From the NCBI GenBank assembly GCA_963835295.1, contig CAWIEX010000012.1:646089-678088 (forward strand): a stretch of 32,000 nt of DNA, written 5' to 3'. This DNA comes from an uncultured Actinomycetes bacterium. Lineage in GTDB: Bacteria > Actinomycetota > Thermoleophilia > Solirubrobacterales > Solirubrobacteraceae. Of this stretch, positions 20,246 through 32,000 are shown in pieces. Position 1 is the stretch's first letter. Each line of letters starts with the position of its first letter. A program made the position numbers and the translations under genes. A model generated the notes under the pieces. It had not been told where the DNA came from and searched no databases. It was given only the letters and a program-made list of their open reading frames with translations.

Positions 20246-20267
20246 GCGCCCTTGCTACCGTGGCCCC

Positions 20268-21152
20268 ATGGACGCGCAGCAGCGCCAGGACCCCGGGCCT
20301 GCCACCCTGGCCGACCCCACGCTCCGGGAGTACAAGCTCGTCGGCGGGATGGAGACCTTCGCCAACCGCAGCTTCTGGCCGGGCTTCTTCTCCCGCGTCG
20401 CTGCCCGCAAGCAATGGGATGCGGCGGCGATCGACTTCGCACCCGACGTCCGCGCGTGGCAGGAGCTTCCCGACGATCGCCGCCAGCGCCTCACCACGAT
20501 TCTCGCCGGCTTCCGCGTGGCCGAGGACGCCGTCGCCGAGAATCTCACGCCGTTCGTCGTCGCGGCGAACAGGGAGACCCTGGCCTCCCAGGAGAGCCTG
20601 ATGGCCTGGACGTTCTCCCTGCAGCGCCGCGACGAAGCGCGCCACGCGCGCCTGTTCGACCGCATCGCGGGAGAGATACTCGGGCTGCCCGGCGAGACCC
20701 CCGACGAGCGCCGCGCGGCGGCCCGCGAGTATGCCCCGCCGGCGATCCTCGAGCTCTTCGAAGACCAGTTGCCCGCGTTGACCGCGGAGCTCACGGCGGG
20801 TGAAGCCGGGCTGGGCGAGGGCGTCAGCCTCTACCACATGCTGCTCGAGGGAGTCGTCTTCAACGCCGGCACCAACGCGCTGCTCGACGACCTGGCCGAC
20901 GGCGCGCTGCCCGGAGTGCGCGAGGGTGTGGAGCGCGTCGAGCGCGACGAGCGCTGGCACGTGGGCTTCGGCCTGCGCTGCCTGATCGAGACCCTGCCCT
21001 CTCAAGAGCGCATCGATGACCTGGTCGCGCGCGGCGGAGCGGCCGCCGCGGCCTGGGGTGACGCCGTCCCAGCCGCCATACGCGAGCGCAGCGCACGCAC
21101 GTGCGCACACCGGCTGCACGTCTCCGGGTTCACCGAGACGCGCGCGGCGTAG
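20268..21152 (+). CDS. Ferritin-like diiron/dimetal carboxylate protein, ribonucleotide reductase R2-like
   Basis: 294 aa. The R2 layout is 'FWPGFF...W..IDF..D...W..L', followed by 'AEDAVAENL', 'RRDEARHARLF', 'LLEGVVFNAG' and 'ERDERWHVGFG' (E, ExxH, E, ExxH). No R1 subunit lies nearby. Confidence 0.75.
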   Translation: MDAQQRQDPGPATLADPTLREYKLVGGMETFANRSFWPGFFSRVAARKQWDAAAIDFAPDVRAWQELPDDRRQRLTTILAGFRVAEDAVAENLTPFVVAANRETLASQESLMAWTFSLQRRDEARHARLFDRIAGEILGLPGETPDERRAAAREYAPPAILELFEDQLPALTAELTAGEAGLGEGVSLYHMLLEGVVFNAGTNALLDDLADGALPGVREGVERVERDERWHVGFGLRCLIETLPSQERIDDLVARGGAAAAAWGDAVPAAIRERSARTCAHRLHVSGFTETRAA

Positions 21153-26790: not shown

Positions 26791-27497
26791 CAGCGCTGCT
26801 CGCGGCCGACTCGTGGCTCGTCGCCGACGGCCGCGCGCGCGCCGTCGAGCGCCACTGGGCCCGCTTCACGGCGACGTGCCGCGAGCAGGGCGTCTCGCCC
26901 GACGAGCTCGCGGCCTTCCGCGCCGAGGTCGAGCGCGCGCTGCCGTCGACGGGGCGCTGGTTCCCGCGCATCGAGCTGCGCGCGGACGGCGAGCTGGCCC
27001 TCGAGCTGCGGCCGGCGGCGCCGCGCGAGCCGGCCGTCGTGGCCTGGGTGGCCGATGTGCCCGACCCGCGCGTCGCGCCGCGGCGCAAGGGGCCCGACCT
27101 GGAGCGGCTGGGCGCCCTGCGCGAGCGCGCCGCGGCGCACGGCGCCGGCGAGGCCGTGATCGCCGACGGCGACGGCCGGCTGCTGGAAGGTGCGTACACG
27201 AGCCTGCTGTGGTGGGAGGGGGAGACGCTGTGCGCGGTCCCCGACGACGCGCCGATCCTCCCCGGGATCACGCGGGGGCTGGTGATCGAGCTGGCGCGCG
27301 CACGCGACACGCCGATGGCGCAGCGCCGCCCCCGGCCGCGGGAGCTGGCCGGCCGGGAGACATGGCTGGTCAGCGCCCTGCACGGGATCCGGGCCGTGAC
27401 GCGGTGGGCCGGCGGCGTGCTGCCGGCGATCGATACGCCGCGCGCAGCCGCCTGGCAGCGCCTGCTCGACGAGCTCGGCCCCCGTCAGCGCGTCTGA
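26787..27497 (+). CDS. pabC: Class IV aminotransferase-fold protein, aminodeoxychorismate lyase-like
   Basis: ATG 26787 overlaps the pabAB stop (ATGA). Matching segments are 'GEAVIADGDGRLLEGAYTSLLWWEG...LPGITRGLVIELA...ETWLVSALHGIRAV'. The sequence is divergent, so the function is inferred largely from coupling to pabAB. Confidence 0.6.
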   Translation: MTALLAADSWLVADGRARAVERHWARFTATCREQGVSPDELAAFRAEVERALPSTGRWFPRIELRADGELALELRPAAPREPAVVAWVADVPDPRVAPRRKGPDLERLGALRERAAAHGAGEAVIADGDGRLLEGAYTSLLWWEGETLCAVPDDAPILPGITRGLVIELARARDTPMAQRRPRPRELAGRETWLVSALHGIRAVTRWAGGVLPAIDTPRAAAWQRLLDELGPRQRV

Positions 27498-27522
27498 GCG
27501 CGGTCACCAGCGGCGCCCGAGG

Positions 27523-27581
27523 GCGAACGAGCGGTACCCCTCTGCGAGCGAACGGCACCCCCGCGAGATTCGCTGCGAACG
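27523..27581 (+). repeat. Three direct copies of GCGAACG(G/A) spaced 25 and 27 nt apart, in the 176-nt gap upstream of the dehydrogenase operon
   Basis: GCGAACG occurs at 27523-27529, 27548-27554 and 27575-27581. The first two copies are followed by a C-rich tail (GGTACCCC, GCACCCCC) and the third by GCGCCGCAC. Confidence 0.4.
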
Positions 27582-27611
27582 GCGCCGCACGGACATACGA
27601 TCCGGCTGGGT

Positions 27612-27639
27612 CGAAAGGGAGCTGCAGTGCGCCCTTTCG
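27612..27639 (+). other. GC-rich hairpin (8-bp stem, 12-nt loop) between pabC and the dehydrogenase operon
   Basis: CGAAAGGG (27612-27619) pairs with CCCTTTCG (27632-27639). No U-tract follows. The hairpin ends 34 nt upstream of GTG 27674. Confidence 0.35.
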
Positions 27640-27673
27640 GTTACAGCTGAACAATCGACGCGAGGGAGCTTCC

Positions 27674-28120
27674 GTGAGCGACACTGCCGTCGACGTATCC
27701 AAGCTGGACCACCAGAACGGGGTGACGCTTGGTCGGATCCTCGGGCGTGGAACCGTCGGACAGGCTGAGGAGGGATCCGACGGCGTCATGCGCGCCACCA
27801 TCCGGATTCCGGAGGACGAGCTGGTGTACGAGCCCGGCGTCCTCGTCATGCCCCACGGAGGAACGCTCGAGCTCACGCTCATCAACGATGACAAGAACAC
27901 GCACTGCGCGGTGCTCCCGTGCAACGGCGACTACAAGTTCATCTGGTTGGTGAACCATTCGAAGGGCCAGGCGACCCTCGAGCTCGACGGCCCGGGGTAC
28001 TACTGGTACGGCTCGCGTTCGGGCAACGACGAGGGCCGGGGCCTGACCGCCGCGATCGTCGTGGGAGGCGAGACGCCACCCGAGGCTCGCCTGGACCGCC
28101 CGCCTCAGCCGCGCCCCTAG
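27674..28120 (+). CDS. Small cupredoxin-like beta-sandwich protein lacking the type-1 copper ligand set
   Basis: GAGGGAG lies 5 nt upstream of GTG 27674, in the frame of track ORF 26588..28120. 'YEPGVLVMPHGGTLELTLINDDKNTHCAVLP' follows the cupredoxin first-half pattern. 'GPGYYWYGSRSGNDEGRGLTAAIVVGG' follows the second half, but the Cys/His/Met ligand positions are replaced. The fold call is by eye only. Confidence 0.45.
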   Translation: MSDTAVDVSKLDHQNGVTLGRILGRGTVGQAEEGSDGVMRATIRIPEDELVYEPGVLVMPHGGTLELTLINDDKNTHCAVLPCNGDYKFIWLVNHSKGQATLELDGPGYYWYGSRSGNDEGRGLTAAIVVGGETPPEARLDRPPQPRP

Positions 28121-28163
28121 ATCGACCGCCCCGGCTCGACCACACCGTGAAAAGGAGTACCTG

Positions 28164-29852
28164 ATGGCAACCGAGTACGTAGACGCAGGGCAGGCCGTCG
28201 ACAACTCGACGCTGAGCGGCATCATCGGCCACGCACCGCCGGTGGCCAAGGGCGTCACCTACGAGCGCATCCTCAACGCCCGCTCCGAGCCGCACAACTG
28301 GCTCACCTACTACGGCGCCTACGACGGGCAGCGCTACAGCCCGCTCGACCAGATCAATGCGGAGACCGTCAAGCAGCTCAAGCCGGAGTGGATGTTCCAG
28401 TGCGGTTCGGTGGGCCTGCACTCGGGCGCCTCGACGTATTCGTTCGAGGCCTCCCCGCTCATCGTCGACGGCGTCATGTTCGTCTCGGGCTGGGACGGCT
28501 GGGTCTGGGCCCTCGACGCCCGCAACGGAGACCTGCTCTGGCAGTACCGCCATGCGTCGCCGTTCGACGTGTCGCTGTGCTGCGGCAACGTCAACCGCGG
28601 CGTCGCCGTGGCCGAGGGTAAGGTCTTCGTCACCACCCTGAACGCCCATGTCGTGGCGCTCGACGCCGAGAACGGCAAGGTGGTCTGGGATCAGGTCTAC
28701 GGCGACGTCCGCGCCGGTGAGAGCGCCACGGTCGCTCCGCTCATCGTCAAGGACATGGTCATCGTCGGAAGCTCCGGCGGCGAGTTCGGCGTGCGCGGCC
28801 ACGCGGACGCCTTCAAGCTCGAGACCGGCGAGCGCGTCTGGCGCTGCTACATGGTGCCCAAGCCCGGGGAGCCGGGCTCGGAGACCTGGCCCGCCGACGG
28901 CGAGGCCTGGGCGCGCGGCGGCGCGAACTGCTGGGTCACGAGCACCTTCGACCCCGAGCTGAACCTCCTGTACTTCGGCACCGGCAACCCGTGCCCGGAC
29001 TTCGACGGCGGCGTGCGCGAGGGCGACAACCTCTACACCGATTCGGGCGTCGCGGTGGACGTCGACAGCGGTGAGATCAAGGCCCACTTCCAGTACACCC
29101 CGCACGACCTGTGGGACTACGACTCCACGATGGAGCACATCCTGTTCGACCTCGACGGGCAGAAGATGGCGGCCCACTTCGACAAGAACGGGTTCCTCTA
29201 CATCCTCGACCGCACCAACATGGAGCCGATCCGGGTCGCGCCGTTCGTCGACCGCATCGACTGGGGCGAGGTCGACGAGAAGGGCAACGTGACACCGCTG
29301 CGGTTCCCCGAAGCGGAGGGCGACCCGGTCCACTTCTGGCCGGGACCGGCCGGCGCCAAGGAGTGGACGCACGCGTGCTACAACCCGAACACGGAGCTGC
29401 TCTACGTTCCGGTGCAGGACGTCGGCGCCACGGCCACGCGCCGGCGCAGGGAGTTCAAGGAGAGCATCCCGTACTGGGGAGCCGGCGTCGCGGTGGACCT
29501 CGAGGACATGGCGGGGTCGATCAGCGCCTTCGATCCGCGCACCGGTCAGGAGCGGTGGCGCTGGGCCAACGACATCCCGATGTGCTCGTCGGTGCTGACC
29601 ACGGGCGGCGGCCTCGTCTTCGCGGGCGAGCCGACGGGGGAGTTCAACGCGCTCGACGCCAGCAGCGGTGAGCTGCTCTGGAAGTTCCAGTGCGGCAGCG
29701 GCCACCACAGCAGCCCGTCGACGTACAGCATCGACGGACGGCAGTACATCGCCGTGCCGACCGGGTGGGGCGCCTGGACCGAAGGGTTCCTGCCGGGGAT
29801 GCTCGGAGCGGGGCAGGGCAGCTCGCTCATCGTCTTCGCGCTGCCGGACTAG
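28164..29852 (+). CDS. xoxF: PQQ-dependent methanol/ethanol-family dehydrogenase with lanthanide-type D-Y-D signature (XoxF/ExaF-like)
   Basis: 562 aa. AAAGGAG lies 6 nt upstream of ATG 28164. The eight-bladed propeller W-motifs are present. There is a vicinal Cys-Cys 'SLCCGNVNRG' (28578-28583) and 'TPHDLWDYDS' (DYD at 29115-29123). No hydrophobic N-terminal signal is present. Confidence 0.85.
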   Translation: MATEYVDAGQAVDNSTLSGIIGHAPPVAKGVTYERILNARSEPHNWLTYYGAYDGQRYSPLDQINAETVKQLKPEWMFQCGSVGLHSGASTYSFEASPLIVDGVMFVSGWDGWVWALDARNGDLLWQYRHASPFDVSLCCGNVNRGVAVAEGKVFVTTLNAHVVALDAENGKVVWDQVYGDVRAGESATVAPLIVKDMVIVGSSGGEFGVRGHADAFKLETGERVWRCYMVPKPGEPGSETWPADGEAWARGGANCWVTSTFDPELNLLYFGTGNPCPDFDGGVREGDNLYTDSGVAVDVDSGEIKAHFQYTPHDLWDYDSTMEHILFDLDGQKMAAHFDKNGFLYILDRTNMEPIRVAPFVDRIDWGEVDEKGNVTPLRFPEAEGDPVHFWPGPAGAKEWTHACYNPNTELLYVPVQDVGATATRRRREFKESIPYWGAGVAVDLEDMAGSISAFDPRTGQERWRWANDIPMCSSVLTTGGGLVFAGEPTGEFNALDASSGELLWKFQCGSGHHSSPSTYSIDGRQYIAVPTGWGAWTEGFLPGMLGAGQGSSLIVFALPD

Positions 29853-29944: not shown

Positions 29945-30478
29945 GTGGTCGGCAGTCTCTTCATCCTCGGATTTACGCTCAGCCTCGACAACTTCCGCAC
30001 GGCGATCGCGCTCGGAGGGCTCCAGTTCGGCTGGACCCGCGCCCTGCAGGTGGCCTTCGTGTTCGGGTTCTGCGATGCCGTCGCACCACTGGTCGGCATC
30101 CTGATCGGGGACTACTGGAGCGAGTCGATCGGCTCGACGGCCGAGTACGTCGGGGCGGCCGCGCTCGGCGCCTACGGCGTGTTTCTGATCATCCGTGCGT
30201 GGCGCACCGCGGCGACGGACGAGTTCGATCGCCCGTGGGCGGTGTTCGGCCTCCTCGTGCCGCTGAGCGCCGACAATGTCGTCGCCGGCACGAGCCTGGG
30301 TCTGCTCGGATACTCGCCGTGGATCGCCGCCCCGATGTTCGGTGCCATCACTTTCGTCATGGCGCTGGTCGGCCTGCAGATCGGGAGAGTGGCTTCTTCG
30401 GTCATCCGCATTCGTCCCGATCTCCTGACCGGGGTCGCGCTCGTCGTCATGGCCGGCATCCTGGGGCCGCGCGCATGA
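29945..30478 (+). CDS. mntP: MntP/DUF204-family membrane protein (putative divalent-metal efflux)
   Basis: 177 aa with a GTG start, strongly hydrophobic. Two DUF204-type repeats are present: 'FTLSLDNFRTAIALG' and 'LVPLSADNVVAGTSLG'. Confidence 0.65.
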   Translation: MVGSLFILGFTLSLDNFRTAIALGGLQFGWTRALQVAFVFGFCDAVAPLVGILIGDYWSESIGSTAEYVGAAALGAYGVFLIIRAWRTAATDEFDRPWAVFGLLVPLSADNVVAGTSLGLLGYSPWIAAPMFGAITFVMALVGLQIGRVASSVIRIRPDLLTGVALVVMAGILGPRA

Positions 30479-30486
30479 GCCGACGC

Positions 30487-31884
30487 CTAGGCGTGCTCGT
30501 GAGCAGCCATGCGCGTTGCGAGCTCGGTGAGCATCCGCACCCCGTAGCCGGTCGCCCCGCGACCGAACGCGTCGCCGCGATCCTCGTCGAGCAACGCCGT
30601 GCCGAGCATGTCGACATGCGCCCAGGGTCCTTCGCCCGCGAACTGCTGCAGGAAGGTCGCGGCGACGATCGGGAAGCCGAAGCTCTTCCCGGCGGTGTTG
30701 CGCAGGTCGGCGACGGTCGAATCGATGAGGGAGCGGTAGCGCGGATGCAGGGGCCAGGGCCACGCAAGATCGTCGCTGGCGTTCCCCGCCTCGACGACGG
30801 CGTCGCGCCACGAGTCGTCGGGTGCGAAGACGCCCGCGTAGAGGTCGCCCATGCCGGCGCGCATGGCGCCCGTCAGCGTGGCGAGATCGACGAGATGCGT
30901 GGCGCCGTCGCGGCGCGCCCACCACAGGGCGTCGGCGAGGATCAAACGCCCCTCGGCATCGGGGTTCGTGACCTCGACGGTGAGGCCGGCGGCGGTGGTG
31001 ATGACGTCGGTCGGTCGGATGGCGCTGGCGCTGAGCATGTTCTCGCAGGCCGGCACGACACCGGTGACCGCCAGCGGCAGCCCGAGCTCGGCGATCGCTC
31101 CCAGCGCGGCCAGGACCGCCGCGCCACCGGCCATGTCGGCCTTCTGGCGCACGATGTCCGCCTGCGGCTTGAGGAAGTAGCCGCCCGTGTCGAACGTGAC
31201 CGCCTTGCCGACGAGGGCCAGCCGGGGTGCCTGCGGTGCGCCGGCCGGCTCGTGGCGCAGCACGATGAGGCGCGGCTCGATCGGGCTGCTCCCGCCGACG
31301 GCGGCGAGCGCGCCGAGTCCGGCTTCGCCGGCCGCGATGGTCTCGACGGCGACACCCGGCACCGCGGCCGCCCGCTCTGCCAGCCCGGCGGGCGAGATCA
31401 CGTTCGCCGGCGCGTCGACCAGTTCGCGGGCGACGTTGGTCCAGCGCGCGACGAGGGCCGCGCGGGCGGCGACTGGCGCGAGCTGCTCGCCGACCCCGCA
31501 GATCACGAAGCGCTCGACGCCGCGCGGCGGCTCACCTCTGCGCCAGCGGCGTTCGTCGTAGCCGCCGATGACCGCGCCCTCGGCGAGTGCGTGCACCTGC
31601 TCCTCGAGGGAGAGGGGCAGGGACGCGTCGAGCGCCCACGCGACCGTCCCGCCGCCGCGGCACGCGCGTACCGCCCGCGCCGCAGCGGTCCGCAGCCCGT
31701 CGACGTCCGGCTGCAGAGCGACGACGGCGAGCGGGGCGCCGGCCGTGTACACCATCGCCACTGGATCGGCATCCGCAGTCGCGCGCTCCGGGGCACCAAG
31801 CTCCGCCGCCCGCGCTCCCACCGCGGCTGCGACGAGATCGGCCCCGATCGCGGACGGCTCGCCTGCACTTAGTTCGACATGCAT
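30487..31884 (-). CDS. pepA: Leucyl aminopeptidase (M17 family)
   Basis: 465 aa. Matching segments are 'LVGKAVTFDTGGYFLKP...MKADMAGGAAV...ENMLSASAIRPTDV...TVEVTNPDAEGRLILADAL...LVDLATLTGA'. Confidence 0.88.
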   Translation of the reverse strand: MHVELSAGEPSAIGADLVAAAVGARAAELGAPERATADADPVAMVYTAGAPLAVVALQPDVDGLRTAAARAVRACRGGGTVAWALDASLPLSLEEQVHALAEGAVIGGYDERRWRRGEPPRGVERFVICGVGEQLAPVAARAALVARWTNVARELVDAPANVISPAGLAERAAAVPGVAVETIAAGEAGLGALAAVGGSSPIEPRLIVLRHEPAGAPQAPRLALVGKAVTFDTGGYFLKPQADIVRQKADMAGGAAVLAALGAIAELGLPLAVTGVVPACENMLSASAIRPTDVITTAAGLTVEVTNPDAEGRLILADALWWARRDGATHLVDLATLTGAMRAGMGDLYAGVFAPDDSWRDAVVEAGNASDDLAWPWPLHPRYRSLIDSTVADLRNTAGKSFGFPIVAATFLQQFAGEGPWAHVDMLGTALLDEDRGDAFGRGATGYGVRMLTELATRMAAHEHA

Positions 31885-31958: not shown

Positions 31959-32000
31959 ATGACGTGGGTCAAGCCCAAGTTTGAGTTCGTAGAGCTGTGT
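31959..32000 (+). CDS. pqqA: PqqA-like PQQ precursor peptide, first 14 codons only (runs off the window)
   Basis: Absent from the ORF track. AGGAGG (31949-31954) is followed by a 4-nt spacer and ATG 31959. The translation MTWVKPKFEFVELC matches the PqqA N-terminal pattern M-x-W-x-K-P-x-F/Y. The diagnostic E-x-x-x-Y would lie beyond the window. Confidence 0.55.
   Translation, partial: MTWVKPKFEFVELC

Follow-up and report, generated by a model that had tools for sequence, protein, structure and literature searches.

A copper-less cupredoxin of the MSMEG_3727 family as a possible accessory subunit of a signal-less quinoprotein alcohol dehydrogenase

The stretch of DNA analysed here (the window, 32,000 nucleotides from an uncultured Actinomycetes bacterium of the Solirubrobacteraceae; GenBank assembly GCA_963835295.1, contig CAWIEX010000012.1, positions 646,089 to 678,088) contains a gene for a protein of 148 residues directly upstream of a gene for an alcohol dehydrogenase that uses pyrroloquinoline quinone (PQQ). 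An initial annotation, made from the sequence alone, described the small protein as cupredoxin-like, devoid of copper ligands and a candidate dedicated partner of the dehydrogenase. What can a cupredoxin do next to such an enzyme once its copper site is gone? The answer that we favour, and to which we give somewhat better than even chances, is that a former blue-copper electron acceptor has turned into a copper-less, tightly bound cytoplasmic accessory subunit of the PQQ dehydrogenase.

A catalogued family and its dehydrogenase

The small protein matches PF23509 (MSMEG_3727, PQQ-associated) with an E-value of 6e-74 (246.9 bits, cut-off 27) and TIGR04339 with 252 bits (cut-off 75) over positions 9-151 of 151, and a Pfam scan at E-values up to 1 returned PF23509, one chance match and nothing else. 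Judged by these matches, it is a typical, full-length member of the MSMEG_3727 family. We found no feature that separates it from this family, with which it shares the full-length match, the place before a TIGR03075 gene and the linkage to pqqABCDE, and to which no function is assigned. Since the curated family is called PQQ-associated, the idea of a dedicated partner is already contained in its name, and both the family and its link to PQQ dehydrogenases are catalogued knowledge. The only paper that we found to name the family's namesake lists MSMEG_3721-3727, without studying them, as a putative PQQ cluster of Mycobacterium smegmatis (PMC6529628). Our literature search returned no paper tying a cupredoxin to XoxF-type enzymes, and the searchable papers contained no description of the two forms presented below, lipoproteins with copper ligands and signal-less proteins without them. 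Three giant multi-repeat proteins that matched the query (P0212, P0224 and P0231) were not counted as members, their matches being treated as a general beta-sandwich resemblance; P0212, for example, is a Big_2 repeat protein of 2142 residues with 15 matching stretches in an unrelated gene context.

The dehydrogenase of the window carries a vicinal Cys139-Cys140 pair and a W-D-Y-D motif (Asp318, Asp320), and we take the Asp318-x-Asp320 pair to be the mark of lanthanide enzymes. In all of the 80 best loci from GTDB genomes the dehydrogenase gene starts 30-60 nucleotides (nt) 3' of the small gene on the same strand, and pqqB, pqqC and pqqE are found at most 7 kb away in 43-47 of them. Of 401 genomes sampled evenly across the phylum, ten had the small gene above cut-off, each with the dehydrogenase gene adjacent. 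Three genomes of this sample encode a TIGR03075 enzyme with no detected small-gene partner, in two cases at contig ends. The third case, G218 (L098, G218:C221, 2478-4466, minus strand), is a signal-bearing, XoxF-like enzyme that has the W-D-Y-D motif and belongs to another clade; as no MSMEG_3727-type gene lies upstream of it, the partner appears to be specific to one dehydrogenase clade. The partner dehydrogenases form this single clade, with 58-62% identity to the window enzyme across phyla and 82-87% within the class, and the vicinal Cys pair and the W-D-Y-D motif are present in all of them.

The same arrangement extends to other phyla. Genes for family members with a complete set of copper ligands stand directly upstream of a PQQ dehydrogenase gene in one Armatimonadota, one Thermoanaerobaculia and one Verrucomicrobiales genome, and the remaining neighbours of these loci are unrelated. 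The synteny thus bears out the proposal of a dedicated dehydrogenase partner. In the Thermoanaerobaculia locus, a TonB-dependent receptor gene (L091:9312-11102) follows the copper-bearing pair and overlaps the dehydrogenase stop; it could serve the uptake of lanthanide or PQQ.

The cupredoxin-like strand pattern read by the initial annotation was examined by structure prediction. An AlphaFold2 model of the small protein, made from a 45-sequence alignment, has a predicted local distance difference test score of 80.8 and a predicted template modelling score of 0.74, and DSSP assigns to it a helix at residues 5-25 followed by eight strands. The best 50 matches of this model in a Foldseek search of the PDB were all cupredoxin domains, with a probability of 1.00 and target template modelling scores of up to 0.78. 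Auracyanin (6kol) was the best match with an E-value of 3e-7, and further matches comprised Cupredoxin_1 of Bacillus anthracis, CuA domains, AcoP, nitrite reductases and multicopper oxidases. The atlas neighbours of the protein are cupredoxins as well. Searching the PDB with the single sequence found no cupredoxin, and its matches (SdhE with an E-value of 0.23, ricin and Fab chains) were discarded as noise; a profile search was required. The family profile matched the type-1 copper domain of nitrite reductase (E-value 6e-8) and pseudoazurin (3.6e-6) and, more weakly, plastocyanin and auracyanin. In these alignments the conserved His/Cys/His/Met columns of the family coincide with the copper ligands of the targets. 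The modelled fold of the MSMEG_3727 family is that of a cupredoxin, and the strand pattern has held up well.

Copper ligands and export signals in the two family forms

The four ligand columns were read in 249 family sequences, which fall almost completely into two forms. The His/Cys/His/Met form comprises 122 sequences, 112 of them with a signal-like N-terminus and 82 with a lipobox. The His/Ser/Asp/Leu form comprises 123 sequences, and a signal-like N-terminus occurs in none. The window protein is of the second form, with His77, Ser114 in place of Cys, Asp119 in place of the second His and Leu124 in place of Met. His77 is found in 247 of the 249 sequences, in both forms, and in alignments with the type-1 copper domains of nitrite reductase it falls on their first His ligand. 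The N-terminus of the protein is polar, and its homologues in the copper-less clade share the start position. The initial annotation had therefore been right about both the replaced Cys/His/Met ligands and the missing signal peptide.

Copper-bearing sequences come from Armatimonadota, Acidobacteriota (Thermoanaerobaculia) and Verrucomicrobiota, among others, and copper-less ones from Solirubrobacterales, other Thermoleophilia and Actinomycetota; the best-matching locus, at 99% identity, belongs to a metagenome-assembled genome of the Paraconexibacteraceae. A maximum-likelihood tree placed the copper-less sequences in one clade on a long stem (Shimodaira-Hasegawa-like approximate likelihood ratio test support 98), which is nested among copper-bearing sequences when the tree is rooted at its midpoint. 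Because each of the four ligands has its aligned counterpart in the wider cupredoxin superfamily, loss of the copper ligands is far likelier than their gain. The early-branching copper-less sequence P0391 has an N-terminal helix of the exported type and no signal. The partner dehydrogenases bear a signal only where the small protein bears one, which suggests that export was lost by both proteins together.

A separate branch, formed by P0182 and P0210, has Ser or Asp instead of the Cys ligand and keeps the Met and the lipobox, so that the copper site must have changed at least twice. P0182 (locus L094) still precedes a dehydrogenase of the same clade, and the locus of P0129, a distant copper-less member, likewise keeps the pairing.

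Having lost its export signal and all type-1 ligands but one, the window protein is no classical blue-copper carrier, and the role of electron acceptor has to be withdrawn in the form in which the initial annotation had offered it. A blue-copper acceptor role does fit the copper-bearing lipoprotein relatives, which probably play the part of XoxG. In the history that we favour, the ancestor would have been a blue-copper protein that took electrons from the dehydrogenase in the periplasm, much as amicyanin does from methylamine dehydrogenase. Once a monoderm lineage had ceased to export the pair, the copper site would have been rebuilt with O-donor residues, as copper is not available to cytoplasmic proteins, and the small protein would have been retained as a tightly bound accessory subunit.

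Such an ancestor has counterparts, since azurin is the natural acceptor of a type II quinohaemoprotein alcohol dehydrogenase (PMC8348568). The family has in common with amicyanin and azurin the cupredoxin fold, a profile homology with aligned ligands and the attachment to one dedicated quinoprotein dehydrogenase, and its exported members also share the full His/Cys/His/Met set. The window protein, however, lacks the Cys, the second His and the Met, and unlike amicyanin and azurin it is devoid of an export signal, carries an additional helix at the N-terminus and ends in a conserved Pro-rich tail.

It is very improbable that both proteins are exported without a classical signal and that the pair acts on the external side of the membrane. 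All characterised relatives of the PQQ alcohol dehydrogenase family are extracytoplasmic, and the dehydrogenase retains the vicinal Cys139-Cys140, which form a disulphide in periplasmic enzymes. However, no Sec, Tat or lipoprotein signal occurs in either protein across the 123 members of the clade, the intergenic gaps of 30-60 nt are too short to encode one, and the pair is surrounded by cytoplasmic one-carbon (C1) genes of the tetrahydromethanopterin (H4MPT) and methanofuran pathways. Moreover, outside the cell there would be no reason for the copper ligands to vanish.

The predicted complex and the conserved loop

The complex of the window pair, whose prediction had been suggested with the initial annotation, scored 0.74 (0.69, 0.78 and 0.74 in three runs), whereas all three controls scored 0.00. 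The mark against which the score is read was attained by 58 of 80 solved complexes and by 2 of 110 mismatched pairs, counts that are rough, as our own alignments were used. The small protein makes contacts through residues 67-71, 79-101, 103-111 and 130 and through its tail. Those of the dehydrogenase comprise its N-terminal arm (3, 5-16), residues 127-136, which lie just before Cys139-Cys140, and residues 158-162, 171-173, 178-184, 186, 210-213, 224-251 and 430-435. Glu186 is presumably the metal-binding Glu of methanol dehydrogenase, and its contact would place the partner at the rim of the active-site face, as far as can be read from contacts rather than coordinates. The tail is conserved in both clades, throughout which A138, D141, R142 and P143 are invariant, and its residues 134-135, 137-143 and 145-148 touch the dehydrogenase in the predicted complex. 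In the arrangement that we propose, the sheet face (79-111) and the C-terminal tail would lie on the dehydrogenase loops near the vicinal Cys pair, Glu186 and the N-terminal arm.

A stable complex, as predicted here, would set the window protein apart from amicyanin and azurin, whose complexes are transient. The nearest analogue of the proposed role is MxaI, the beta subunit of the calcium-dependent MxaFI, which is also a small cofactor-less protein permanently attached to a PQQ dehydrogenase. MxaI is unrelated to the window protein in sequence and fold, and its Pfam family did not appear in the scan of the window protein; it is short and mostly helical, its gene lies downstream of that of the large subunit, and its enzyme is periplasmic.

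The fate of the former copper loop was assessed by the mean column entropy over 57 non-redundant copper-less sequences. Loop 112-124 has a mean entropy of 0.30 bits, the lowest of all segments in this clade, compared to 0.49 bits for the predicted interface, 0.57 bits for the rest of the core and 1.13 bits for the N-terminus. The same loop is likewise the most conserved part of the copper-bearing clade (0.24 bits). Ser114 and an acidic residue at position 119 are retained down to 54% identity. As far as these alignments tell, the former copper loop is rebuilt and not decayed: a plain relic would drift, and the strongest conservation falls on the loop, which therefore probably still does something specific. 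It may form a His77-Asp119 clamp in the metal's place, bind a harder metal, or be in contact with another protomer or with a third protein. In terms of the accessory subunit, a His77-Asp119 contact would hold the fold, or the loop would bind a harder metal or another partner.

That the rebuilt loop with its O-donors (Ser114, Asn118, Asp119 and Glu120, together with His77) is a novel type of cupredoxin-borne metal site, acting as a lanthanide donor to the dehydrogenase or as a non-copper redox centre, seems unlikely to us. If true, PQQ-dependent methanol oxidation could run inside a Gram-positive cell, and the protein would be without known precedent both as a cupredoxin adapted to a hard metal and as the dedicated partner of a lanthanide enzyme working in the cytoplasm.

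Two other features had been noted. The initial annotation had pointed to acidic loops, and the NDD turn (N71, D73) is indeed present; it is, however, kept in copper-bearing relatives and hence is no hallmark of the copper-less form. The H-C...P-C pair does occur in the window protein but is not a family feature, as only Cys78 is conserved in the clade (121 of 123 copper-less sequences); Cys83 is Ser in 85 of the 123, and copper-bearing relatives have neither Cys. Hence, the pair was rejected as a metal site.

Cys78 matters for another explanation, in which the protein is still an electron carrier: His77, Asp119, Glu120, Ser114 and perhaps Cys78 would bind a redox metal that the cytoplasm can supply, e.g. 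iron, accept single electrons from PQQH2 and pass them on. We consider this rather unlikely, even though it is consistent with the near constancy of Cys78 in the clade and with a loop conservation close to that of the copper-bearing clade. No known cupredoxin transfers electrons via such a site, residue 78 should face away from the His77 side (as judged from beta-strand geometry), the more distant P0141 and P0129, also copper-less, have Ser or Ala instead of Cys78, and the loop lies outside the predicted interface. The search for another electron outlet of the enzyme speaks for a carrier nonetheless. No cytochrome, flavoprotein or ferredoxin gene recurs near the pair in the 80 neighbourhoods, and neither XoxG nor XoxJ reached its family cut-off anywhere in the 94%-complete genome, so that their absence, first noted for the window, holds beyond it. 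The best genome-wide score for TIGR03872 (cytochrome cL) was 22.5 bits, compared to a cut-off of 147.8, and was obtained at another place. The window protein occupies the same dedicated-partner slot beside the dehydrogenase as the cytochromes cL XoxG/MxaG and as XoxJ/MxaJ, but it matches none of these families and there is no C-x-x-C-H haem motif in its 148 residues.

A metallochaperone or assembly factor is quite an unlikely identity. In such a role, the protein would carry a hard cation (lanthanide, calcium or manganese) on the loop, or would hold the apo-enzyme open until PQQ and metal have been inserted in the cytoplasm. The replacement of soft copper ligands by the O-donors of Ser, Asn, Asp and Glu would suit this, but the loop offers two carboxylates only, whereas known lanthanide sites have more, with 8-9 oxygens. 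The predicted interface touches the dehydrogenase loop with the metal-binding Glu186, and the Asp318-x-Asp320 pair, the mark of lanthanide enzymes, also agrees with metal delivery; a high-confidence stoichiometric complex is not, however, what one would expect of a chaperone. Finally, a gene for an MntP-type protein, a candidate cation exporter beside a metal-dependent enzyme, follows the dehydrogenase gene in 30 of the 80 loci, with a P-type cation ATPase gene nearby, yet copper-bearing relatives share the order of the pair without needing such a role.

Several points weigh against the accessory subunit that we prefer. The highly conserved loop 112-124 is outside the predicted 1:1 interface, and a purely structural role would leave its conservation unexplained. 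The complex score is the model's own confidence, and the dehydrogenase alignment behind it had 7 rows. A copper-bearing pair (L091) scored 0.00 when predicted in the same way, so an ancestral docking mode does not follow from the model; we rejected the idea of reading 0.74 versus 0.00 as a contrast between a stable and a transient complex, and regard the L091 score as evidence neither way. The polarity, copper being lost and not gained, follows from parsimony and a midpoint root with no outgroup, and "cytoplasmic" here stands for the absence of recognisable signals. In addition, the literature search found no experimental paper on any member of the MSMEG_3727 family.

The loss of copper from a cupredoxin has counterparts elsewhere. 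Early-nodulin-like phytocyanins and ephrins have the cupredoxin fold, no copper site and new roles, and they are eukaryotic and extracellular. They resemble the present case in that the fold is kept and the ligands are lost, but they are unrelated to quinoproteins, whereas here the loss coincides with an apparent move into the bacterial cytoplasm and the original partner is kept.

Gene, transcript and neighbourhood

The open reading frame (ORF) itself is well documented. The initial annotation had given it 148 residues, a good Shine-Dalgarno sequence and a distance of 43 nt to the dehydrogenase gene, all of which stand: GAGGGAG is separated by 5 nt from the GTG start, and exactly 43 nt lie between the stop and the dehydrogenase ATG. 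No terminator-like site was found on the plus strand between the two genes. The G+C content at the three codon positions is 0.69/0.46/0.87 (0.87 thus being that of the third position) in a window of 74% G+C. This is the pattern of a real gene, and the antisense ORF overlapping the small gene (0.78/0.50/0.71) does not have it. The protein collection contains 1883 homologues, relatives are encoded in 539 GTDB species genomes, and the homologues have 77-97% identity over 120 clusters with the frame intact. The genome has one copy of the small gene and one TIGR03075 dehydrogenase gene. The positions of all features are given in Table 1.

Table 1. Positions of the small gene, its elements and the neighbouring genes in the window
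Feature	Position	Strand	Basis or remark
Probable 5' untranslated leader with Shine-Dalgarno GAGGGAG (27662-27668)	27625..27673	+	sequence, metatranscriptome contig ends
MSMEG_3727-family gene	27674..28120	+	GTG 27674, TAG 28118-28120, 148 residues, stop codon included
N-terminal helix, residues 5-25, in place of the lipoprotein signal and tether of relatives	27686..27748	+	DSSP, alignment
His77 codon, sole retained type-1 copper ligand position	27902..27904	+	alignment
Remodelled former copper loop, residues 112-124, Y-G-S-R-S-G-N-D-E-G-R-G-L	28007..28045	+	ligand columns, entropy
C-terminal tail, residues 134-148, P-x-E-A-R-L-D-R-P-x-Q-P, both clades	28073..28117	+	alignment, predicted interface
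Intergenic spacer, 43 nt, with dehydrogenase Shine-Dalgarno AAGGAG (28152-28157)	28121..28163	+	sequence
Signal-less PQQ alcohol dehydrogenase, methanol/ethanol family, 562 residues	28164..29852	+	TIGR03075, 612 bits
MntP-type (PF02659) membrane protein gene, directly after the dehydrogenase	29945-30478		
M17 leucyl aminopeptidase gene, between dehydrogenase and pqqA	30487-31884	-	
pqqA start, 24-residue precursor, cut by the window edge	31959..32000	+	translation of L007:6048-6122

Contigs of four soil metatranscriptomes were aligned to the stretch and their word depth was counted. The depth amounts to hundreds to thousands across the small gene and the dehydrogenase gene; it is 0 at 27487-27573, rises within 27574-27660 and decreases to about 10-60 past 29836. 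Such sharp edges argue against a carry-over of DNA. Short contigs cross the intergenic gap with 0 mismatches (e.g. 28112-28223), but contigs covering both genes are no proof of a single transcript, and the runs also contain relatives at 90% identity or more. The transcript may start about 45 nt 5' of the GTG of the small gene, which would put the GCGAACG repeats (27519-27640) seen in the initial annotation into the promoter region. Contig ends that abut Illumina adapter sequence were observed at 27625 and 27631 in two runs.

Taken together with the conservation described above, this coverage contradicts the view that the gene is a decaying remnant with no present function, which we regard as extremely improbable. 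Three of the four ancestral ligands are indeed gone, but the frame is intact and under strong purifying selection across the 120 clusters, the loop is the most conserved segment, the gene order is kept in all 80 loci, and the metatranscriptome coverage is high.

The wider neighbourhood fits a cytoplasmic module for the oxidation of methanol or alcohol. Genes that recur over the 80 loci encode methenyl-H4MPT cyclohydrolase, an MtdA/B-type dehydrogenase, MfnB, a CitG-like protein and DUF1464, as well as an R2-like protein and pterin-4a-carbinolamine dehydratase. The window has genes for PabAB, a class IV aminotransferase, a glutamine-synthetase-like protein and DUF447 upstream of the pair. The genes pqqA-E lie 2-5 kb downstream of the pair, all above cut-off; PqqA begins with M-T-W-V-K-P and contains the E-x-x-x-Y pair, and pqqB, pqqC, pqqD and pqqE follow directly, past the window edge.

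Two further genes were noted in these neighbourhoods. An M17 aminopeptidase gene is found at the same place as in the window in 30 of the 80 related loci. Many PQQ producers have no fixed enzyme for trimming the PqqA-derived intermediate, and the M17 aminopeptidase could perform this trimming. In about 30 related loci (e.g. L059:5900-6802) the gene immediately preceding the small gene encodes an R2-like di-iron protein (PF00268); its counterpart in the window is located at 20256-21152, about 6.5 kb upstream, amid methanofuran genes.

In summary, the locus is a well-documented example of a catalogued family and lends itself well to a simple biochemical test. In soil the pair is abundant, with relatives in 539 GTDB species and a strong signal in the four soil metatranscriptomes. 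The family addresses a standing question, namely which electron acceptors serve most lanthanide-type PQQ alcohol dehydrogenases beyond the XoxF/XoxG model. In Acidobacteriota, Verrucomicrobiota and Armatimonadota the electrons probably go to a blue-copper lipoprotein, whereas soil Thermoleophilia and mycobacteria appear to have its copper-less descendant attached to a seemingly cytoplasmic enzyme. If this is true, the family bears on the intracellular re-oxidation of PQQH2, on the handling of lanthanides there and on the way in which a metal site is remodelled once its protein has moved to another compartment.

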